From Rhizaria sp. SCN 62-66 (taxonomy: Eukaryota), in assembly GCA_001724265.1 (NCBI GenBank), contig MEDY01000215.1, positions 1-49,606 on the forward strand: a DNA stretch of 49,606 bases, in the 5' to 3' direction. The notes under the pieces are model-generated. The model was given only the letters and a program-made list of their open reading frames with translations. It ran no database searches and was not told the DNA's origin. Positions 16,590 through 31,300 of this stretch are shown piece after piece. Positions within the stretch are counted from its first letter, which is position 1, and the number at the start of each line of letters is the position of its first letter. The position numbers were made by a program, and so were the translations under genes.

Positions 16590-19500
16590 TTAGTAGAAGC
16601 CGCCGGGGCCGCCCATGCCGGGCATGCCACCCATGCCGCCCATGCCGCCCATACCCATGCCCATGCCGGGCATCGGGGCCGCGCCCATGGAGCCCATGCC
16701 GGGGACGTGGGTGAGCATCAGGGGCGCGTTGGCGCCAGCCATGAGGTGAGGGGGCACGCCGGTGAGGCCGAGGCCGACAGCGTCCTGGGCGCCGTCAACC
16801 TCCTCCTCCTTGGCCTTCTTCTCCTCAACCTTCTCGCGGACCTGGGCGTCGAGGCGCTTCTCGACGGTGGCAAGGCGCGCGTTGTACGACTGGAAGGTCT
16901 GGATCATGTAGGGCATGGCGAAGTTGGTGAGGTTGTGGCGCCACGCGAGCTCGAGCACGATGTCGGGCGTGATGAAGTCGTAGCACGTGTAGAGCATCGC
17001 GGAGAAGCACTGCTCGAGCTTCTGCGCAACGAAGAAGCGCAGGAGCGACTCGCACAGAGCGGGGTCCTTGGAGCTCGTGGCCGTGTCGATGGCGTCCTGC
17101 CAGAACTCGTCTTTCTTGCTCAGGTCGATGGACTGCTCGAAGCGCTCGGACTTCTTGTAGAGCAGCGCGGCGATGCGGCGGAACTCAAGGAGCTCGTGCT
17201 TCTGCAGACGGACGGCAAGACCCATCTGGTCGAACGAAGAGTGGTCCTCGATTGAGCCGCGGAGCGCACGGTGGTTCTCCTCGAGGATGTAGAGGTCGTT
17301 GATGGCCTCGTTGACGACGGGGAGGTCCGAGTGCTGAACGTGGACGAGGTACGACTGGATCAGAGGCAGGTGCTCGGCGTTCTTGACCTTGGAGACGACG
17401 CGCGAGTGGTCGAGCTTCTTCTCGTTCTCAAGCAGCACGTCCGAGAGGAGGAGCGGGTGAGCAGAGAGGTAAAAGTCGATGGCGCGGTAGAAGATCTCGG
17501 TGTTGGAGCACTTGACGAGGACGTCCTTAAAGAGGTCGTGCTTCCACGCGGCAGCAGAGTGCTCCATCATGAGGTCGATGGCGTTCTCGTACTGCTCGTC
17601 CTGCGAGCACAGGAACACAGCCTCGGGCCACAGCAGGTTCTGACGGCACGCGGCGATGAGCTGAGCAACGTTGGCACGGGCGTGGAAAAGCTTGACGTGC
17701 TCCATCATCTTCTCCTCCTTGTACTTGGCGTAGCACACGCCGAGCTGAGTGAAGATACCCTGGTGCGGGCGCTCGATGTTGATGCCCTGCTCGAGCAGCG
17801 CAATGAGCTCGGTGAAGTAACCGCGGCGCTCATAGTGCTGCACGAGATCCATGAGGTGCTCGTTCATGCCGATGACGTTGAGACCGCAAACCTGAGCGAG
17901 ACGGAACTTCTCGGCGTCGGCGCAGGCAAAGCACACGAACTTCCACGTCTGGATCGCCTTGGCCTTGCGGGCGGCGTCGACGGCCTCCTGCCAGAGCTCG
18001 AGCTTGACGAGGGTCATCGCAAGCTTGGCGAAGTTGTTGAGGTGCGTGTAGATGACGCGCGCGGCCTTGTACAGGCCCTCGGAGAAGGCGCGGTCGCCGG
18101 CGTCGACGAGACGGCCAGAGAGAGGCTGCTGGACAAAGTCCTCGAGGTCCGCGAGGCGGTCCGCGCGGGCAAAGGCGTAGAGCAGCTCGGCGTCAATGGA
18201 CGCGTCCTTGCCCTTGGTGCGGGCCATGCGGAGGTAGTCGATGAGAACGTTGTAGAGCTCGATGATGGCGGCCTCGTCCGAGGTCTCCTTGGTGAGCGCG
18301 GTGACGGTGTTGATCATCTCCTTGGCGCACGAGGCATCCTCGGCCTTGAGCAGCGACTTGGTGGCGGCCTTGACGTCGCGCGCGGCGAGCTGGGCCTTAC
18401 CGAGCAGGGACCACACGTCGGGGTGGTCGACCTGAGTGGCGAAGTCGAGAGCGCGGGCAATGTCCTGGATCTTGTCGATGAGGACAGCGACGGCCTCCTT
18501 GGCCTTCTTGGCCTTCTTGAAGATGAAGAAGGCCTCCTCGTACAGAGCGTTGGCGTCGTTGAGGCACACCTCAGCGATCTTGTCCGTGTCGTAGTTCTCA
18601 AGACGCTTGATGTACTCCATCACACGCTTCTTGTCGGCCTTGACGGCGGTGAGGATGAGGAGGTTCTGGAGGTTCTTGTTGTCCTGGAAGTGACTGGCGT
18701 TCTCGCCACCGCGCAGCATGAGGCGCTCGAGCAGCTCGATGAGCTCGGTGGGCAGGTCAGCGGCGATGAAGGCCTTGACGGTGACCGAGACCTCGTCGGG
18801 CGAGTGAGACTCGGGCAGCGCAGTGGACACAACCTGGTCGACAAGCTGGCGGCGGTAGGGGTTCGACTCAATGAGCACGATCTCCCACGCGGCGAGGTCC
18901 ATGCGCTCGACGAGGTAGCGGGCCTGGTCCTTGAAGAAGCCGTTCTTGTTGGTGACCTCGATGAGCTCCTTGTCACACTTGCCCTTCTTGTACACGATCA
19001 CCGCGAGACGAGGGTCGCGCGACTCGCAGAAGGCGCCCACCACAAGCGGGTCGTACAGCGTGTTGGTCTCGAGGAAGTGCTTGGGGTTGTTGTTGCCCTC
19101 GATGAAGACCTTGGCGAGCGACGTGTAGACGTGGCCGTCCTTGGAGTCCTCAGCGACACGCGCCTCAAGCCAAGTGCGGAACAGACGCAGGCGGTTGCGC
19201 TTCTCAAGCACCTCGGTGACCTTGGTCACCCACTCCGGGTCGTCAGCAGGAGGGCGGATGCCGTCGAGCATCTTCTTGACCTGCTCCTCACCGGCGTTGA
19301 GGTCGATGAGCGTGCCCACCACGGCGGGGGCCGCGGAGGGCGCCATGCGCTGCACGAACGCGTCGAGGAACTGCACGAGGTTGTTGTTGAACAGGAACGT
19401 GGTGAGCTCCTCGAGGTAGTTGAAGCGGTTGCACACGTGGATCAGCGCACGGGGGTCCTTGAGAGTCACAGGCTGCTCCATGAGGAACTCCTTGACCTCC

Positions 19501-22086
19501 TTGGGGTCGTAGACGTTGTTCTCGCGGCACACGCGCTCGATCTCCTTGGCGGCATTGGGGCCGATCTTGATCGCAGCCTCGATGTACTTGAACACCACAG
19601 ACGGGTTCGAGGTGAAGTTGACGAACGAGCCGAGGAAGAAGTACAGGCCGTTGAAGGACTTGAACTCCTCAAAGAGCGCGACGAGCTTCTCAGCGCCGTA
19701 GTGCTCAGTCCACTTCTTGGCAACCTCGACGACGAGACGGATGTTCTGCTGCAGGTTCTGCTTGAGCATGTCACGCAAGCACTCGAGGCCGAGCTCGGGG
19801 GAGAGCTTGCCGAAGTAGTCGAGCAGGAACTCGGGCTTCATCGTGTGCGCGTACGTGAGCACGCGCTTGATGTCCGTCTGGTCAGAGTAGTGCTCGAGCG
19901 CGCGCTGGAAGAGCTGAGCACGCTCGCACAGCTGCGCGATCTTGATCTTGTCGTAGTGCGTCATCTTGTAGTCCTCAGACTCGAGGATGGCGTCGGCGAT
20001 GGCGGGCATGTGGAGCAGGTTCGACTCGAGCACCTTGGTCTGGAGCGCGGCGTCCTCGGCGCGGTCGCCGCGGGAGCGGAGGTACTCGAGGATGATGTTG
20101 GTCGAGTTCTGCACGTCGTTGAGACGGATGAAGACGTCGGTGACCTGGTTGATGTCCATCTTGGGGCCGTCCTCGGCAGTCACGAGCAGCGTCGCGAGGT
20201 CCTTGCCGCGCTTCTGGTTGAGGCGCACGAGCATCTGCAGCAGCGACGCGTAGTCGGGGGTAAAGTCGACCTTCTTGGCGTACTTAAGGATGTTGGCAAA
20301 GTGCTCCTTGGCCTTGGCATCGTCGGCCTCCGCAGCGCCGAGCTGGACGAAGCAGGCGGCGACCTTGTCCTTGCACTCGGCGCGGAGGAAGACCGACAGC
20401 GCGAGCTGGGGGTTGTTGTGGCGCATCAGCTCCATGCCGAGCTCCTCACTCGCCTCGAGCTTGTTCTGCTTGAGCCAGTTCTGGATGTGCTCCACACCGG
20501 CGGGGCCCTTGGCGAGCAGCGGGCGGGCCAGCTCCACGGCCTCGACGGCGTTGAGCTTGCCGTTGGGCTTGTTGAGGATGAGCTGGAAGTAGGCGAGCAG
20601 GTTGGTGCCGCCCATCTGCTTAAGCAGCGCGATCGTCTCGCCGTTGCGCAGCACGCCCTTGGGGGAGCCCGCGGCGAGCTCCATAGCCTCCTGCGTGCGG
20701 TTCTGCTGCATCAGCGAAGCGAACTGCGTCTTGAACAGGTGGTCGGCGCCGTCGAGGTTGTAGCGGCGCGCGAGCTGGACGCCGAGGTCGAGGTCACGCA
20801 TCGTGTTGCAGATGTACGGCACGGCGTTGGCCTTGTCGAGAGCGAAGTGGACGACGCGGCCCTTGAGATCGATGGCGACGCAACCGTCCTCGGAGTGGGG
20901 CGCCACGGCGAACAGAGTCACCTGCGACGCGCGGCTCGCGAAAATGGGCTTGCCGGACTGGATCTCGTAGGCAAAGACGAAGCCCTGCTGCGACATGACG
21001 TAGAGGATGCCGTACTTGGGGTCAGCAACCATGTTCATGGGGAAGTCGGCGGCGTCGGCGAAGCGCATGGGGGCCTGCTTGGAGAAGGCAGTCTCCTTGG
21101 GGACGCCAAGCTCGAGCATCTGGAGGGTGTAGGTGCCCGTGGCGGGGTCCTTGCGGCAGAAGGCGAAGATGTTGGACTTAGCCTCCTTGTTGTCGAGCTG
21201 GGTGTGCGCGAAAGTCGCGGCGGGGGCGTTGAGCGTGGGCTGCGAGGCGCGCGCATCGACGGAGTAGACCTGGAGAACACCGTTGAAGTTCTTGTTGGCG
21301 TCGACCGAGAGGCCAGAGAGCATGAGCCACTTGCCATCGGGGGTGGCAAAGTAGTTAATGACCTGGACGGGCGAGTCGTGCGGGGTGCGGTCGAACATCT
21401 TGACGGGCTCACCGGCGCCCTCGAGGGACCAGTGGAAGACGGAGTCGGTGGTGACAATGGCGACAGTCTTAGGGTCGATCCACTTCCAGTACACGATGGT
21501 ACCGGCGATGGTGGCCTGGGACATCTTGGCCTTCATCTCGAGCGAGTACATGGTGAGGTGGCCACCAGCGCGGAGAGCAACGACCTTGGACACGGGGTTC
21601 ATGATCGCCGAGTCAGCAGCGATAGGAAGGCGCGTGGGAGACGACTTGGACTTGAGGTCCACAATGGCGATCGTCTTCTGCGCCTCCTCACGCACGCAAA
21701 CGTAGTTCTCGGCGGAGATCGTCACATTCGCGAACTTGATCAGAGAGGCATCGATGTTCTTGTCCGAGAGCTGCACGAGGCGGGTTTGAGTGGAGCGAGC
21801 GAGGGCGGAGAGATTAAAAGGACAATGAAACGAAGCGAAAGCAGAGATGTGAGCAAGATACCAGGCATAAAAGAAGAAAATACATCGAATGAAGAGTGTA
21901 AATTAAAAGCCCACACCCAGAAACTCAGCGCTGGGAGCGCACACAAGAGGCTGGCGGATTTGGGGCGACGTAAACAGGAAAGTGCAAAGGCTGAACGAAA
22001 GACAGGATTTCGACGCGGATTCTTTACGACAAACGTACTTTGGCAAGCTCGGTCAGAGCGATCGACTGCGGGCCAGGCTGAGACAT
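16590..22086 (-). CDS. CHC1: Clathrin heavy chain (exons 22086-22039, 21770-16590; 1742 aa)
   Basis: Exon 1 MSQPGPQSIALTELAK, intron GTACGT...TGCAG, then LSDKNIDASLIKFANVT...ADSAIMNPVSKVVALRA. CHCR repeats, LLEFRRIAALLY, DIVLELAWRHNLTNFAMPYMIQ, and a Gly/Met/Pro-rich tail. TAA stop. Confidence 0.98.
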
Positions 22087-23137
22087 TTGAGTTAGCGTAT
22101 ACTAGCTCAGTCTATGCGACAAATTGGCAACATCTCGCTCCCGCTCGACTAGGCCCCATCTCTGGCGTTGGGCCCTAGCCCCCCCCAACTTAATTTAAGC
22201 CGCATTGTCTCCGGGCTCAGTCAGTTGGCCTCAGTCCGCCCAGTCCAACGCCTCTCTGGCCCTCACTCTGCAATCGATATCTGTGGGGAGATTTTGCGTG
22301 TTCGATTTGAATTTGATTGTCAGGATTGCCATATGCTGTTCATGTATTTCCATCAATTTAATTATTCATTTGCGCTTGTCAAGTGCACTTAGTGCCGGTT
22401 TCAGTACCATAGACTGTTTGAATGTTTGCTACTTTTCCGAGGATTACATGCGCATGATCGGGAATATGCACTCTTTAGGGGTTTATTTTGCTTTTGTTGC
22501 GGTTCGTTCTACGGGGTAATATGAATAAATTGTTGACATCTACTATTCTTGCACGTCAGAAGCGTGCCTGAGTGCGCTGGAATACGATGGGAATTGCGAA
22601 GATCGGGAGAATAATTAAAGATACCAGAGCATCAAGTAGGGCTTAAAGAATAAATTGATTGTTCTTATTGTATACAGTGTTTGTTAAGTCTTGGATCTTG
22701 CCGTGGCAAGTGTGTTATCTAACGTAAATGTGATCATCGACCTCCGTGAAGGTCGCATGTTTAGATCTGTTTTTAGCACACCACCGAGTAACCAACGCTG
22801 CTCTATCGCTCGCCACAACGCCGCTCTCTGCTCCAGTCCCAGTACCATGCATATTCTCTGTGCGTTTGATGAACTCTGACAGCACAGAGACGCGCGCGAG
22901 GCGTATCTGGGTGAGTTTCACCATCTGACTAGTGCTATCAACAACAGAGCTCTCTGTTTGAGGGACGCAGAGACACCGAACGAGGACGTGAGAAAGCAAG
23001 CGCAGACCCCCGCGCATACTGAGTGCAAAACTCACGCGACGCGCGGCGGCAGCGCCGCCCGATGCACCCGGAAAGCAGGGGAGAGAAGCAGGGACAGAAT
23101 TGGCAGTTTGTAGTGCAGCTCGGTGTTGACGGTGCGT

Positions 23138-23589
23138 TTAGGCCTTGGGGAGGCCGAGCTCGGCGCGGAGCTGGGCAACAAAGTCCTGGTCCGCGTCGTC
23201 GTCGTCCCAGTTGGTCGCCCAGAGCGCCTCAGTGGGCGTGTCGTCCTTGGCGTCCCAGTCTAAGCAAGAGAGCATAAAACGGTCAACAGTGAGGGAGGAG
23301 CTAGAGGCGAGCAGCGAAATGACATTGCAGAAAGAAGGGATAAAGACAACGCAAAATGTAAGGGGTAAGATACGTACTCTCAACAGGGAACTCCTCGAAC
23401 TCGTCCTCGCAGTCGACATCCTCGACCTGGGGAACGGGGGAATAAAGGGGAAAGAGGGGTGGTCAGCATCATCTCAAAAGGTTCGGGAGACAGGAAAAGT
23501 AGACAGTGTCAGGAGGCATCAAGGTTGAGTAAAACGCGTACCTTATTCGCCTTGGCGTTAATGTTATCGATATCCTTCATATCAGACAT
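23138..23589 (-). CDS. SEM1: 26S proteasome subunit SEM1/DSS1 (exons 23589-23542, 23426-23378, 23259-23138; 72 aa)
   Basis: Spliced protein MSDMKDIDNINAKANK-VEDVDCEDEFEEFPVE-NWDAKDDTPTEALWATNWDDDDADQDFVAQLRAEL has the DSS1 motifs DEFEEFP.E.W and W..NWDDD...DF..QLR.EL. Two GT-AG introns keep the frame. TAA stop. Confidence 0.95.
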
Positions 23590-23923
23590 AGTGATTATGC
23601 ACTTGACGGATTTGACAAAGAGATCTAGCTTTTCCACGAGTCGCGACCTTGGACCCAACCGCCACCCACACACACAACCACAAATCGAAACCGAGCATGT
23701 CCAACAAGATTTTCTCAGGCATATGCAGCGAAGATCTTAGGTAAATCGAGCAAAACTAATGTTTCCATAATCAAATTCTTGTTTATTAACATAAGTAACT
23801 CAATAAATCAAACATACTACTTAATAACAGAGCGCATATGCGTTATGCCCACTCGACGCAGCCACTGGGGTCGTCCTTGAGCTTGTTCATTCGTTCAGTT
23901 GCTCCCTGCTCCCTGCTCACTGC

Positions 23924-26900
23924 TCACTGGAGCGTGAGACAGTCGAGCCCGTCAGGGAAATACGCATCACCGAACGTCAGCGCGGCGAACGACACCACAA
24001 GCGCGGCATACCCCGCGGCGACGGGCCCGGACACCGGCAGCGAGTACACCGCGTAGTCGACCACCGCGCACAGCGGACCGATGAGCAGCGACCCGGCGGC
24101 GACGGCGGCGGGCGACGCCACAAACGTCGCCAGCGCCACCAGCGCGTTGTGCAGCACGTCCGCGGCGCACGCGAGCAGCAGCAGCGGGAGCTCCCTGCGG
24201 CCGGGCAGCTGGAACGTCTCCAGCCCGGTGGCGTGCAGGAGCCCCATCACTGGCCACAGCATCAGCGCCGTGCACAGCCCCAGCGCGCCCAGGAACAGCA
24301 GCGCCTCGGCCGCCTCCTGCGCGGGCACCTCGAGCGCCGCCGCGGGCAGCCGCCAGACCAGAGTCGCCGCCGCGCGCGCGCGCCGCCGCGCCGGGGAGAG
24401 ACCGAGCTCAGCGTCGCAGGACGCGCCCGATTCCTCCGCCACATGCTCGTCATCGTCGTCGTCATCGCCGTTGTTGTGGCTGAGGCCGGAGTTGCCGGCG
24501 GAGGCGGCGGCGCCCGCCAGAGCCGCGGGGGGACGCACGCGCACCATCGACGGGGCGCCCACGCGCGCGCCAGTCGCCGGCGACGCATTCGGCCGCGCAC
24601 TCGCACTCACAGTGCTCGGGCGCGCACTGGCGGCCTGGTAGTCGAGGTCGAGGGCGGCGTTGTCGGAGCTGTCGTCGTCGACGTCGACGATGGGGCCACG
24701 GCGCATCGCCTCTGCGCGGTTGCGCGGCACGGGCTGGCGCGCGCTCCTGTGGTTTCCCCCGCTGTGCGCATGCCCATGCTCATCATGACCGTGACCGTGA
24801 CCGTGAGTGGGCCCGTGGTTGCGGCGGACGAGGGGCAGCGCGTCGTAATCCGCGCGCTCGTTGAGGTCCGCGTTCGTGCCCAGAGTCTGGTCCACCGAAA
24901 GCTGTAACAGCGCAAAGAACGCCGCCGCCAGCGCAGCCAGCGCGGCGCCCCACAGCGCCACGCGGTGCGTGAACGCGCGCGGCTCGGTGAAAGCGCCGAT
25001 GAACCGGCGCGCGAGCGTCCACGGCGCGTCGGGCGCGCCGGCGACGACGGTGACGACGCCGACTGCGGCGGCGGCGACGGCAACGAGCGCCCACCGCGAC
25101 GGCGCGCGGCCCAGCAGCAGCGCCGCGAACACCGCGCCCCACGCCGGCTCCGACAGCACGACGGACGCGTTGACCGTGAGCGTGGTGGTGGCGAGCGATG
25201 AGAACCAGAGCCAGGAGCACAGCGCCGAGAGCGGCGACAGCAGCGCGGCTGTGCGGACGATGTGTGCGGCGCGGCGCAGGAGACCGGGGGTCGGGTTGCC
25301 GCGCGCCCACGATAGCCACACAAGCGCGAGCGGCGCGGCGGCCGCGGCGGAGAGGTAGCCGACAAAAAAGGGCTGGTCGTACTGCTTCGCCACAAGCAGC
25401 TTCTGCACCGAGAACATCTGCCCTGCCCACGCCGCGACGAACAGCAGCACGGCACCCGCGGCGACGAGCTCCGCGCGTCCGCAGAGTGGCGCACGGAGAG
25501 CAGGCGCGCGGCGGCGGCGCACGCCCACCGCGGCCGCCGTCAGCAGCAGCGCGTCGCCGTCTTCGTCTTCGCTGTCGACATACTCGTCGCCACCGTCATT
25601 CTGGTGGCCACCGAAGCGGCGCGTAGCACTCTCGCGGTGCGCGCGCCGGTTGCTGCGGCCCTTGCGGCCTGTGTTGCTACCGCGGTCGCCGCCGTTGCCA
25701 CCGGCGCCGCCATGGGACTCGAAGGGGTCCAACAGCTGGTACGGCTGCTCCCCGCCACCGCTCAGCCGCGGCGCACCCGCAGCCCCCGCAGCCGCCGCAG
25801 ACGCAGCAGCCGCAGACGCAGTAACGGGCGGTCCGGCGCCCGCAGCGGCAGCGGCGGCGGCGATCGCAGCCTCGATGTCGGCCGGCAGCGCCGCCGCAGC
25901 GGACCGCGATGATGATGCTGATGATGCTGATGCTGTCGCAGCAGAGGCGGGCACGACAGTGAGCGCGACAGCGGCGGGGCGCGTCAGAGTCGACGCGCGC
26001 AGAGCGGCAAGCGCGGCGGCGGCGAGCGCGGCGGGCGTCGCCGCGGGGGGCGCGCAGTAGACCGGCGCATCGCCCAGCAGCGCCGCCGCCAGCGCCAGCG
26101 ACGGCGCACCCGCAGTCGACACGGACAGCTCCGACGCTGAGAGCGCTGAGGAAGCCGACGCTGACGCTACGCCAGTGGCGGTGGCGGTGGCGGCTCCGTC
26201 TGCATGCGTGCCCTCGACGGGGGCCACCGCGGCAGCGGCTGCTCCGGTTGCGACCGCGAGCGAGGGCGTCAGCGTGACCGAGTGATCCGCGTCGCTGCTG
26301 CTGCTGCAGTTGAGAGCGGCGAGAGCGGCGTCGACAGCTGCGAGCGCGGCGGCGGGCGCGCCGGGCTGCCAGCCGAGCACGGGCACCGCGCGCGCGGGCG
26401 AGAGCTGCGCGGTGAACGCCGACAGCGCGGCCGCGTCCGCCGCGGACAGCGCCGCCGCGGCCTCGGGGCCAGCCACGGTCGCGCTGCCGAGCACGACCAC
26501 CAGCGGCACTCCAGTGAACCCGGCGTTCCCAGTGTTTCCAGTCCGGCTTGCGCCGGTGTGCGCAGATGCGGCTGGCACGAGGGGCACGGCCGACGATGAC
26601 GCAGCAGCAGCAGCAGCAGCAGCAGTGGCATAGGCAGAGGCAGAGGCCGTCGTCGCAGTGCCGGCAGCGGTGGTGGCCGCAGCTGCAGTGGCAGCGGCGG
26701 AGTGCGGAAGCGAGGCGGAGAGCGCGCCGCAAACGAACGGCGCGAGACGCTGCCGCAGCACGGCCAGCTGCGGGGCCAGCGGGCGCCGCACGTCCAACAG
26801 CAACAACATCACGGCCGCCGCAGCATTACCAGCCGCTGCATTAGGAGCAGCAGCAGCAGCAGCAGCGCAGGAAGAGCTCTGCGTGAGATGTGCGGCGGCG

Positions 26901-27964
26901 GCCAGGGCCTCGGCCTCGGCAGCAGAGGCCGTGCGGCGCGGGGCACGCGCGGGTGCGAGTGCGGGGGACAGCGGCGCTGGCGTTAACAGCGCGGCGGGCG
27001 ATGATGAGGACACAGTGGCGGACCCAGTGGCGGGCACAGTCGCGGGCACAGTCGCGGTCAGCGGCGCGGCGGGCGCGAGCAGCTGCACGGTAACGCCGGC
27101 ACGCGGGCATAACACGAGCGCAATAGGCGCGCGCGTGCGCACCGTGGCCTCGGGCGCCGCGGCGGCGGCGAAGTCAGCCGCGAAGGCCACGGAGTGCTCG
27201 GAGTTGGCGGGCGCAGAAGCGAGGAACGACGTGCCCGCTGCTGTTGTCGCGCTACTCCCCGTGGCAGAGTCGGCGGAAAAACACAGGACGGACTTGGTGC
27301 CCGCGGCGAAGCTCAGCGGGGCGAGCGAGGGTGCGCTAGCGGCGACGGCGGAGAGGTACGACAACGGGTCTGCGAGCGAGAGCAGTGCGGCAGCGACGCG
27401 GCGGATGGCGACGCGGCACTGTGTGTCCAGCGTCTGGGCCGGGCCCTGCAAACGCATGATCTCCTGCACCGCGGCCGAGATAGACACGTCGACGGAGTCG
27501 CGCACAGCGCTGATGCGCGCGCGGGCGGCCGCGTAGCTGGACGCGTCGTAGAGCAGTGCGACGAGGTCGCGCTCGTAGGCAGTCATTGCGTCCTCTGAGG
27601 CGAAGGTAGACAGAACAGACTCCAAGGCGCGCGAGACAGCAACAAGCGCCTTGCTCAAGTTCGCAGCACGCCTCGCCTGGGCTTCCTCAACGCGTTCTGT
27701 GCGAGCCGAAGCGCTAGTTTCGTCTGCCTTCGGATAAGCATGCTGCAAGGCGAGCAGCACCAAATCTACGAATAATAACGGCGACAATGAGGCGAAAAAC
27801 GGGGTGTTGTGGTTAAACATGGGTTGTGACGTCAGTGTTGTTAACATCACCATAACGAATTTTCAACTATCGTTTATTTAAGAGCACGTACCTTCGGCAG
27901 AGGGAATGATGGAGCTTGGTTCACGCAGAACCAGGCCAGCTGGTTTGGCATCGACAGTACTCAT
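23924..27964 (-). CDS. Fusion protein: degenerate NOG1/GTPBP4-like N-terminal half plus SLC35F-like (DMT/EamA) transporter C-terminal half (exons 27964-27892, 27765-23924; about 1304 aa)
   Basis: N-terminal segments align by eye with NOG1 (IIPSAEDLVLLAL; YERDLVALLYDASSY; AEAEALAAAAHL). The C-terminal half has about 10 hydrophobic segments with QYDQPFFVGYLS, LWFSSLATTTLTVNASVVLSEPAW and LHATGLETFQLP, typical of SLC35F-type transporters. Intron GTACGT...TAG. TGA stop. Confidence 0.75.
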
Positions 27965-28107
27965 GTCAACCGAAGTGGCAGAGTCCGTGATTCTAATACA
28001 GAAATATCAGCTACTTCTACTATTAAGTTCTACCTGTGCTTCTCGCAATGGCGGAGTTAATGCAGAGTAATTGATGTTCACCTGAAGATCAACTAAGCTC
28101 TTCGTCA

Positions 28108-28149
28108 TCACTGCTGCCTCCGTCAGTCACTGCTGCCTCTGTCAGTCAC
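28108..28149 (+). repeat. Short tandem duplication, 19-bp unit x2.2 (tcactgctgcctcYgtcag)
   Basis: tcactgctgcctccgtcag / tcactgctgcctctgtcag / tcac, read directly in the spacer upstream of the NOG1-like/SLC35F gene. Confidence 0.7.
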
Positions 28150-28399
28150 GAACACCACCTCATCGTCATTTCGTATCACAGCGCGGCAATATCTCATCAT
28201 GTGGCAATAAAACATCGATATAACATGCATTTTCTACGTTTAGACTACATAATCAAGCGAAATTGTATTTGGGTAATAATATACGCATACATGCTCTCAG
28301 ACGAGTTACTCACAAGTTGTAGTTAAGGTTAAGGTGTTCAGGTTAAGGTGTTCATAAATAAGCAAGATTTAGTTAGTTAATTCTGCGAGAGCGCAAGAT

Positions 28400-31300
28400 T
28401 TACTTGTGCTTGCCCTTGCCAAAACCGAAGAAGCGGCCGACAGTTTTAGCTGCGCTGGTAATGTGACCCTTAACATTGTCAACCTTTTCTTCAAACCAGT
28501 CGCGCAGCAGTGCGCCCGACGCGCGGCCGAATAGACGAGCAATGCGCTGCGCACGCGCCTGCGAGAGCATCTGCCAGTCCGAGCCAGTCATAACCCTGCC
28601 GAAGACCTCGGAGTAAATGACTTCGACGTCGATGGGCGCCAGCTCGACGGGGATCGCACGCGCAACCTCCCAGAACTGGTCTGCGACGTCCTTATCGTCC
28701 CACGAAGGGTCGTTCACGCGCGCGGCCGCCGTGACGCCGCGGATCATCATGCGCATCTCGTCGTTGCGCAGCGGCGTCCTGAGGAACGCAGGTGCAACCT
28801 CAACAGCAGTGGCGAACTCGTGCTCAATCAGCTCCACCACGTCGGGCAGCTCGGACATGTCCGGCGGTGGCGGCGTGGCCACCAGGAACTGCTCCAGTCC
28901 GCTGTGCACAAACAGCGAGGGCCGCATCGGCGCCTGCAGCACGCGCTCGGCCACCATCGCCAGCGTCAGACTGCCGCGCGCGCCGCGCCCCGGCGCGCGC
29001 ACAGTCACGCGTCGCACCGTCAGCGCCGTCGCCGGCACGGCCGCAGCAGACGAGGACGCAGTCGCGCTCGCAGTCCCAGCCCCAGTCCCACTCGCACTCG
29101 CGCTCGCGGCAGCCGCAGACGCTGCGTTGCGTGACGCGGCGCGCGGGCCGTAGACCGCAGCCAAAATGCCATTCGGACGAATCGGAGCGGGTCCCTCAGG
29201 AGCCACGGGAGTCGCACAGCTGGCAGCATCATCGGCAGCGGCGGACGCAGTGTCAGGGCTCGCCTCCTTCGCCGCTTGGTGCTCCTTGGCCACGGCGCTG
29301 TGGACGGCGCTGGCGAGCTTCTCTGCCACCTTCCCAACCACAGCCTCGTGCCGGCGACGCGCGTAACCGCGGATAGCCTCCACCTTGCTGGCCGGCAGCG
29401 CGCGCGAGTGCACGAGCGCGCCGACGTCGTCCATAGCCGTGGGCACGCCCGTGGTGTCGCTGAGAAAGCGGTCCACGCTGCGCGCCGCGGCCGCCAGCGC
29501 GCCGTGTGCCATGCGTTCCATCACAGCGCACGCAGCGGCGTCGAGCGGCGCGTCAGCCACCACGCCCGTGCCGTGAACCAGTGCCGTGCCGCGCGGCGAG
29601 CGCAGCGCGGGCACGCCCAGCGCCAGGTCCCACTGGCACGGCGACGGCGGCTCGGGATCCAGCGTGCGCTCCCGCAGTCCGTACGCGCCGTAGCCGGGCG
29701 CGGCGCGCGCGCAGCCCTGCCAGCCGTCCGTCTCCTCGGGCCACAAGTGGCCCTGCATGTAGGCGGCCTGCACGCGCGCAACAGGTGCCTGGCAGCAGGG
29801 CCGCTGGAAGCCGCTGGCGTCCTCAACGACCTCGCACGCGCCGCAGGTCGGTACGCGCGAGGCAAAGGGGCCGTACGTCTGAGCGAAAAGCCGCGTGACG
29901 TTGCGCCACGGCGCCGCGTTGGCCGGGTCGGCGTTGAATGTCGCAAAGATCGACGGCTTCTCCAGCCAGACTGCGCGGCCCGAGCGCGAGGCCGTGTACT
30001 CAGCCAGCGCGGCCTCTGTCTCGGCCTCACTGGGCGGAGTGCGGTCCGCCACGTCGATGCCGCCGTCAGACTCGTCGCCGCTGTCCTCGCGCTCGCGCTC
30101 GCGTGCGCGCTCGCGCTCGAGCTCCTGCTCGAGCGCGCGGCGCTCCTGCTGCCGCTGAAGCTCGCGCTCAGCCTCGGTCGGCGCCGCGGGCCGCGTGCGG
30201 TGCCCGCGCACTGCGACTTCGGCGGACGACGCGGGCCGCCGCGTCGACGCCGGCAGCGGCTCAAGCCCGCTCTTGGTCACCGGCGACGACGACGACGACG
30301 ACGAAGACTGAGGTGACGATGAAGTTGCAGCCGGAGCAGACACGCTGTCAGGCTCGGTGCCGGTGCTGAGGCGCGAGGGCGCGGTAGCGGCGGCGCCTAC
30401 TGCGGCCTCGAGACGGCCGTAGAGCCGGATGTCGCGGCGGCGCTGGTCGTTCCAGCGAGCGAATTCAAGCCGCGCCTGCACAGCGGCCTCGTCCCAGGCC
30501 GCGAGCGCAACACGTGACAGCGGCGCCGCAGGGTCAGTCACGTCGACGCCGTCGAGTGCGCGGCGCGCAGCCGGGTAGCCGTCGGTGAGGTAGAGCATGT
30601 CGGCCTCGGTCAGTGCGGGCACCACGTCGTACGCCATCTCGATCATCGACAACAGACGCGCGTCGGTGAACAGGTACACTGCATAACAAGATAACATAGA
30701 ATCCAAGACATACCACCGAATAATGTTAGAATGTTAGAAACACACGCTACCAATCTATTTTAAAAAAAAAAATCAAAAAAAATCGCGATTGCAATTATGA
30801 CAAGACACAGAGATGAAATAATCACTCTATTCGTACCTGTGCGGACGGCGACCTCAGAGTCGTCGGCGGTGTCGCGGAGAACCTGCTGACCGTCGCGGCC
30901 GGGGACACGGATCTCGGCCTGCGTCTCAACTGTGCGCCGCAGCGCGTGCGCAACGCAGAGCGCCTGCTCGAAGCCCTCAGTGAGCACGCTCGACGGCCGC
31001 GGCGGCGACGGCGAATCGGGTGACACGCACGTTGCGCGGTGCAGCTCGTTCAGCAGCGTGCTCTCGGACACATCGAACGCTACATACACAAACAAAAACA
31101 AAAACACAATTGAAGACAATAAGAAGCAAATAAAAATCAAAAGTGAGACGAGCCTCAAACTTATCGGAAACATTAAATGATACGTGTTTTGTCAATAAAA
31201 GCTGAAACTGTGTGAGACACGACAAACGTACCCTTGCGATAGGCTGCGTTGATGCGCGAGACGACTGGCGCGCGGCCGCCCAGTACGAGCTGTGGCGCCT

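Follow-up and report, generated by a model that had tools for sequence, protein, structure and literature searches.

The contig MEDY01000215.1 of the Rhizaria sp. SCN 62-66 assembly GCA_001724265.1, analysed here from position 1 to 49,606 (the window), carries on its minus strand a two-exon gene that runs from the ATG at 27964 to the stop codon at 23924 and has a spliced product of 1304 residues. The encoded protein would combine, from the N-terminus to the C-terminus, a helical domain related to that of NOG1/GTPBP4, a putative decayed G domain, a low-complexity linker and a transporter of the DMT/EamA type (Table 1). NOG1 (nucleolar GTP-binding protein 1), a GTPase of 60S biogenesis, is essential and conserved in the assembly of ribosomes. 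In the explanation proposed below, the locus is taken to be one genuine gene of two exons that is transcribed and encodes a chimeric membrane protein. An initial annotation, made from the letters of the DNA, had placed here a pseudo-GTPase paralogue of NOG1 fused to an SLC35F-like transporter; its coordinates, 23924-27964, are correct, and all the strings it quoted were found in the sequence.

Joining 27964-27892 to 27765-23924 gives 1305 codons, of which only the terminal one is a stop. The stop-to-stop open reading frame (ORF) of the minus strand covers 23924-27862, corresponding to 1312 codons. The public gene call P0002 (1298 amino acids) begins at a Met within the intron (27766-27862 region) and misses exon 1. 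The end of exon 1 encodes the first half of a NOG1 N-terminal motif, which is restored by splicing. The 16-residue peptide spanning the junction scored 11.7 bits on columns 9-24 of the NOG1 profile, compared with -4.0 bits for the unspliced reading, and its exon-1 portion scored 6.3 bits on columns 9-16. Among the 72,389 six-frame 16-mers of the window, just one attains 11.7 bits on columns 9-24. In addition, the donor type and the length of the intron resemble those of the introns in the adjoining DSS1/SEM1 gene (115 and 118 nt; donors GTACGC and GTACGT). The intron is therefore supported both by its similarity to the neighbouring introns and by the fit of the junction peptide to the NOG1 profile. 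The GC content at third codon positions (GC3), counted in frame, lies between 0.63 and 0.97 from ORF codon 61 to the end, with 0.90 for the clathrin heavy-chain gene of the same window; the first block of 60 ORF codons, mostly intron, has a GC3 of 0.57. The initial annotation had described one uninterrupted exon continuing into a DMT-type multi-helix membrane domain, and this agrees with our model, in which the EamA match and the ten hydrophobic helices described below share exon 2.

The N-terminal domain was assigned to NOG1 by several sequence comparisons. Pfam matched NOG1_N (PF17835) to the first 520 residues of the exon-2 protein with an E-value of 3.7e-4 (21.1 bits) and to the whole exon-2 protein with an E-value of 0.0015. 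The match spans positions 16-150 of the 160-position profile, corresponding to residues 5-142 of the exon-2 protein. A phmmer search against the PDB sequences gave six matches at E<=10, and the top two are NOG1 chains, 8i9r_CH (E 0.0021) and 3jct_b (E 0.057). As a reference set we used 120 NOG1 proteins of 616-841 amino acids, taken from the 465 matches of a search for longer proteins seeded with an Asgard NOG1 (351 amino acids); all 120 carry NOG1_N, NOG1 and NOGCT. A custom hidden Markov model (HMM) of these proteins scored 12.4 bits against spliced residues 1-200 (E 2.3e-6 for one comparison), aligning columns 58-155 to residues 68-166 with a single gap in 98 columns. None of 3000 shuffled sequences reached this score, the best attaining 3.2 bits, and the reversed sequence gave -2.4 bits. 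The program hhalign likewise aligned 72-165 to 71-163 with a P-value of 0.0016. When the NOG1 HMM was run over the 510 ORFs of the window, this ORF was the best with 7.2 bits, followed by a runner-up with 2.8 bits. In the AlphaFold2 model of the N-terminal part, built without an alignment, helices extend over residues 2-143 with a predicted local distance difference test score (pLDDT) of 50-69. Using this model, Foldseek returned NOG1-type chains at ranks 1-11, though with E-values of 0.33-1.9. Chain b of the pre-60S entry 6elz is Nog1 according to the PDB sequence search, and we take chain b of the remaining pre-60S entries in the Foldseek result to be Nog1 as well. Structure prediction thus contributes little to the assignment. 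With the Pfam match, the NOG1 chains at the top of the PDB search and the shuffle control, the claimed relation of the N-terminus to NOG1 is borne out: descent of the first ~170 residues from the N-terminal helical domain of NOG1 is well supported at the level of sequence.

The region following the helical domain retains possible traces of a G domain. A gapped Smith-Waterman alignment of NOG1 columns 160-345 with residues 170-560, in which long insertions were cheap, scored 20.9 bits and placed the aligned G-domain blocks at 26405-26917. The blocks picked by this unsupervised alignment are the same as those quoted in the initial annotation, namely strand 4 with the helix that precedes it, and the strand bearing G4. 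The score was reached by 37 of 2000 global shuffles (p ~0.02) and by 5 of 300 local-window shuffles, and the reversed sequence scored 12.7. As a natural control, 19 windows from four other Ala-rich ORFs were aligned in the same way, and none reached 20.9 bits. In addition, when residues 150-520 of the exon-2 protein, located behind the helical domain, were submitted to the Atlas search, which uses a protein language model, the first seven rows displayed (ranks 1-8) were clusters of NOG1-type G domains, with lead-level scores of 0.84-0.85. The GTP-binding motifs are absent. The patterns [AG]xxxxGK[ST], GK[ST] and [NT]KxD do not occur in the 1304 residues, and DxxG is found only at residues 758 and 1019, both outside the G region; by comparison, all 120 NOG1 proteins carry G1 and G4, and 117 of the 120 carry DTPG. 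The motif scan therefore agrees with the initial annotation in that G1, G3 and G4 are lost, and we infer that the NOG1-derived arm would be incapable of canonical GTP binding, because both the P-loop lysine and NKxD are missing. Neither the NOG1 domain (PF06858) nor NOGCT (PF08155), which occur in all 120 listed NOG1 proteins, was matched by Pfam at E<=10. The AlphaFold2 model has a pLDDT below 50 over residues 140-520. Of the dead NOG1 fold described in the initial annotation, the N-terminal helical domain stands; a remnant G-domain fold in residues 171-545 is only weakly supported, by the alignment and the Atlas clusters, with no match from Pfam, HMMER or hhalign.

The transporter region comprises residues 782-1293 as a whole. 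When a 230-residue piece containing helices 1-5 was scanned alone, Pfam matched EamA with 29.7 bits (cut-off 28.2, E 9.2e-7); in larger queries the same family scored 25.4 and 27.3 bits. The last 150 residues gave no separate Pfam match, and a second EamA repeat was not recognised. Both hydropathy and the low-confidence AlphaFold2 model indicate ten hydrophobic helices, arranged as six helices, a loop and four helices. The ten best matches of an Atlas search with the last 550 residues all belong to the DMT clan, with scores of 0.95-0.96, and SLC35F is found on 92% of the members of the top cluster (0.96), which is a lead only. A Pfam match to the SLC35F profile PF06027 was not obtained at E<=10, and a phmmer search of the C-terminal part against the PDB returned just chance-level His-rich stretches with E-values of 0.14-2. 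Judged by its EamA match and its helix pattern, the C-terminal part is a DMT/EamA-type transporter with ten predicted helices and a His/Asp-rich loop. The DMT assignment of the initial annotation is therefore retained, its SLC35F label is a lead to the subfamily, and the His-rich loop it mentioned has been located between helices 6 and 7.

Table 1. Parts of the chimeric gene and its predicted product, with positions in the window.
Feature	Position	Strand	Residues	Basis and remarks
Exon 1	27892-27964	-	24 codons from ATG	73 nt; GTACGT donor directly after 27892
Intron	27766-27891	-		126 nt, AT-rich, GTACGT...TCGTAG
Exon 2	23924-27765	-	25-1304	3842 nt including TGA stop 23924-23926
NOG1_N-like helical domain	27341-27754	-	29-166 (spliced)	With exon 1, likeness from residue 17
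Putative decayed G domain	26204-27328	-	171-545	35% Ala; long low-complexity inserts; no G1, G3 or G4
Ala/Ser/Gly-rich low-complexity linker	25502-26203	-	546-779	Composition; no family match; no Met codon
Predicted transporter helices 1-6	24842-25495	-	782-999	Hydropathy and model helices; EamA repeat match 25043-25450
Loop between helices 6 and 7	24395-24841	-	149 residues	His-rich motif 24764-24817; Asp run
Predicted transporter helices 7-10	23960-24322	-	1173-1293	Hydropathy and AlphaFold2 helices

Transcription was examined in sequencing runs. Contigs of a polyA metatranscriptome (X1) match the window with 100% identity at 23913-24316, 24479-25708 (four contigs), 25756-26148 and 26944-27190, and thus cover helices 1-6 and 7-10 with the intervening loop, as well as the linker and a portion of the G-like region. 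On 23567-23900 and 27241-28400, X1 had no RNA contig. A second study contributes complementary DNA (cDNA) runs on the helical domain, at 27276-27593, and a run of unspecified kind (X5) spans 27572-28400 unspliced. Short-sided read joints within the ORF were considered as introns and rejected, as they are placed in Ala-codon repeats. The run contigs depart from the window at two single bases, C>T at 24065 (X1) and G>A at 27560 (X3), and strains of the organism therefore occur in at least two studies of sludge or wastewater samples. Contigs of this length are unable to prove a single transcript. Neither of the grounds for rejection named in the initial annotation, a missing NOG1 match by profile or structure and transcripts in two separate mRNAs, was encountered.

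Directly downstream on the minus strand lies the gene of the proteasome subunit DSS1/SEM1 (23138-23589; exons 23542-23589, 23378-23426 and 23138-23259), whose last exon matches Pfam DSS1_SEM1 with 34.1 bits against a cut-off of 32.2. Its intron 1 (23427-23541) is spliced in contigs of the cDNA runs X2 and X3, where the shorter side measures 24-25 letters. On the same strand, the upstream neighbour (28403-30733) is an ORF of 777 codons that contains stretches rich in Ala and Ser, lacks a Pfam family at E<=0.001 and looks like a further orphan. On the plus strand, an ORF of 1640 codons (17256-22178) is antisense to the minus-strand gene of the clathrin heavy chain (16593-21902; Clathrin repeats with E 2.2e-156), indicating that spurious ORFs can grow long in the GC-rich DNA of this window.

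Several results weigh against the reading of the locus as a NOG1-transporter chimera, and they concern each of its parts. At the N-terminus, the 21.1 bits obtained for NOG1_N fall just short of the curated Pfam cut-off of 22.9, hhalign assigns NOG1 a probability of just 16%, and the AlphaFold2 model of the N-terminal part is poor, with a mean pLDDT of 41.4. The VIA-align Z scores of 6.5-8.4 for the NOG1 chains are equalled by ApoE and by designed helical bundles, and we therefore give VIA-align no weight in either direction. In the G-like region, columns 156-236, which represent the first half of the G domain, are free of signal, as 139 of 300 shuffles equal it; the 360 residues that follow the helical domain have no Pfam match, HMMER and hhalign stop by column 163, and the Atlas score of 0.85 is at the level of a lead only by the tool's own calibration. 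At the C-terminus, the AlphaFold2 model is also poor (mean pLDDT 44.3), and Foldseek returned for it no transporter, only unrelated helical proteins with E-values of at least 2.8. At the level of RNA, no contig joins the domains or displays the intron 27766-27891 spliced, the contigs being short, and one X1 contig (23400-23567) carries intron 1 of DSS1 unspliced, in contrast to the splicing seen in X2 and X3. The latter points to intron retention, pre-mRNA or DNA carry-over, and weakens X1 as a proof of transcription. Finally, a homologue search with the whole protein, among 8000 scored candidates, retrieved the protein itself alone.

The low profile score and the structural Z no higher than that of generic helical bundles would be expected if the N-terminus were an unrelated Ala-rich helical segment that resembles NOG1_N by chance. 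We consider such a coincidence highly improbable, since no composition-matched shuffle out of 3000 reached the score, the reversed sequence fell to -2.4 bits, and three sequence methods name the same family. The match also begins at the N-terminal end of the protein, as in NOG1, and exon 1, which lay outside the first searches, supplies the NOG1 N-terminal motif in register. In addition, the following region points independently to NOG1 G domains in the Atlas search.

The absence of a contig bridging the parts would also be compatible with two genes read as one, where a transporter gene of its own happens to share its frame, in very GC-rich DNA, with a gene or pseudogene like NOG1, or with a mis-joined contig, and the antisense ORF at the clathrin locus illustrates how long a spurious ORF can be in such DNA. 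However, the frame here stays open for 1312 codons with the in-frame GC3 given above, it is not interrupted by an AT-rich stretch like the introns and spacers of the window, and cDNA contigs lie on the linker as well. Between residue 344 and residue 808 there is no Met, and residue 808 lies inside helix 1, so that a separate transporter would have no AUG ahead of its first helix. Two genes are therefore quite unlikely at this locus, and we return to the single chimeric gene in what follows.

Relatives of the protein were sought in several ways. With residues 25-544 as the query, phmmer retrieved nothing beyond the self-match from 1.84 billion representatives, a comparison of the C-terminal 550 residues with shorter proteins gave no relative, and a scan of metagenome contigs matched 587 patterns, none of which was confirmed. 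The same fusion, for which the initial annotation had suggested a search in relatives, was thus not found in protein or metagenome searches. Low-complexity words probably crowd word-based searches of this protein, and the absence of relatives is weak evidence. In the literature, the listings and abstracts retrieved contained no paper linking NOG1 with pseudoGTPase, none joining nucleolar GTP-binding protein with SLC35F or NOG1 with EamA, and none on a fusion of a pseudoGTPase with a transporter domain. The combination of NOG1 and a transporter is without counterpart in the databases and literature searched.

Based on these results, we propose that the gene encodes a NOG1_N domain, a decayed G-domain remnant, a linker and a DMT/EamA transporter, with the NOG1-derived part forming a nucleotide-independent cytosolic arm, a proposal that we hold with slightly better than even confidence. 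In this scheme, the 5' half of a NOG1 copy, together with its first intron, would have been fused in frame to a transporter gene. The G-domain remnant would be heavily decayed, swollen with Ala-rich inserts and followed by the low-complexity linker. The EamA core would carry out transport. If the N-terminus is inside, ten helices would place the arm and the loop rich in His and Asp on one cytosolic face, and the loop may bind a divalent metal. Should the arm act at all, its most probable role is that of a cytosolic module independent of nucleotide, in protein interaction, sorting or gating.

The charge of the helical domain bears on whether this arm could still bind ribosomes. The NOG1 N-terminal domain lies against ribosomal RNA on the pre-60S particle, and in all 120 reference proteins it is strongly basic, with a net charge of +10 to +17 and an isoelectric point (pI) of at least 9.68. 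The corresponding domain here has a net charge of -3, a pI of 5.2 and 17 lysine and arginine residues, compared with a minimum of 26 among the 120, so the strong positive charge would have been lost in the arm. The initial annotation had suggested ribosome docking, in which the module, as the descendant of a ribosome-binding protein, would still bind pre-60S or 60S particles and tether them to the transporter. The acidic domain, the missing GTP-binding motifs and the missing NOG1 tail (PF06858 and the C-terminal NOGCT unmatched) argue against GTP switching as well as NOG1-style ribosome binding, and we regard a docking arm as very unlikely.

Alternatively, the fusion may be real and the arm a functionless relic, kept in frame since the only usable start of the transporter lies upstream of it. 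The G region, which is 35% Ala, free of motifs and without a confident fold, would be consistent with such a passenger; continuity of the frame would be enforced by the transporter alone, given the lack of Met codons between residues 344 and 808, and no orthologue displays conservation of the arm. On the other hand, the first ~150 residues are predicted to be helical and align to NOG1 nearly without gaps, whereas unconstrained decay should have removed the helical domain as fully as the G domain. Preservation is far better in the helical domain than in the rest, and we therefore place a functional module somewhat ahead of a relic, which we regard as possible though unlikely. Were the arm a relic, the gene would offer a clear snapshot of domain decay kept in frame by a downstream domain. 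If the arm is functional, as we propose, an essential GTPase would have undergone duplication, lost its binding of nucleotide and RNA, and found a new use as the cytosolic arm of a transporter. No NOG1 descendant in another role or on a membrane protein was met in these searches, and the gene, if the proposal is true, would be a eukaryotic addition to the small set of fusions between G domains and transporters.

Similar to NOG1/GTPBP4, the protein begins with the N-terminal helical domain, collinear from the first residues, and behind it the helix and strands that surround G4 are weakly traceable in the correct order. It differs from NOG1/GTPBP4 in that G1, G3 and G4 are absent, PF06858 and NOGCT are unmatched, long Ala-rich inserts are present, the N-terminal domain is acidic rather than strongly basic, and a membrane transporter takes the place of the NOG1 C-terminal tail. 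The likeness to DMT/EamA transporters consists of one EamA repeat that exceeds the cut-off when scanned alone, ten predicted hydrophobic helices and the DMT clan in the Atlas search. In contrast to these transporters, helices 6 and 7 are separated by a loop of 149 residues rich in His and Asp, no second repeat is recognised, PF06027 is unmatched, and the transporter is preceded by an N-terminal extension of ~780 residues. Pseudo-GTPases are G-domain proteins that do not bind or do not hydrolyse nucleotide, and the retained G fold is their defining feature. The protein resembles them in its apparent descent from a GTPase and in the loss of the binding motifs, whereas its model gives no confident G fold (pLDDT below 50 over 140-520), and the traces in its sequence are the alignment with p ~0.02 and the Atlas lead.

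FeoB, the bacterial ferrous-iron transporter, carries an active TRAFAC-type G domain and a helical domain on the cytosolic N-terminal end of a permease. The likeness lies in a cytosolic, GTPase-derived N-terminal arm on a permease, together with a possible link to metal through the His-rich loop of the protein studied here. In FeoB, however, the G domain is active and the membrane part is not of the DMT type, whereas the present protein is eukaryotic and lacks the GTP-binding motifs; neither FeoB_N nor FeoB_C was matched by Pfam at E<=10, and the resemblance is architectural only. A more specific proposal is that a nucleotide-independent pseudo-GTPase arm derived from NOG1 was recruited away from ribosome biogenesis and now gates, sorts or senses on behalf of a DMT transporter, linked to metal through the cytosolic loop, as a working eukaryotic counterpart of the FeoB architecture. 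This co-option is speculative and, in our judgement, rather improbable; were it true, the arm would be the first descendant of NOG1 to have a role unrelated to ribosomes. FeoB appears to be the closest precedent in architecture for a transporter carrying a GTPase-derived arm of this kind.

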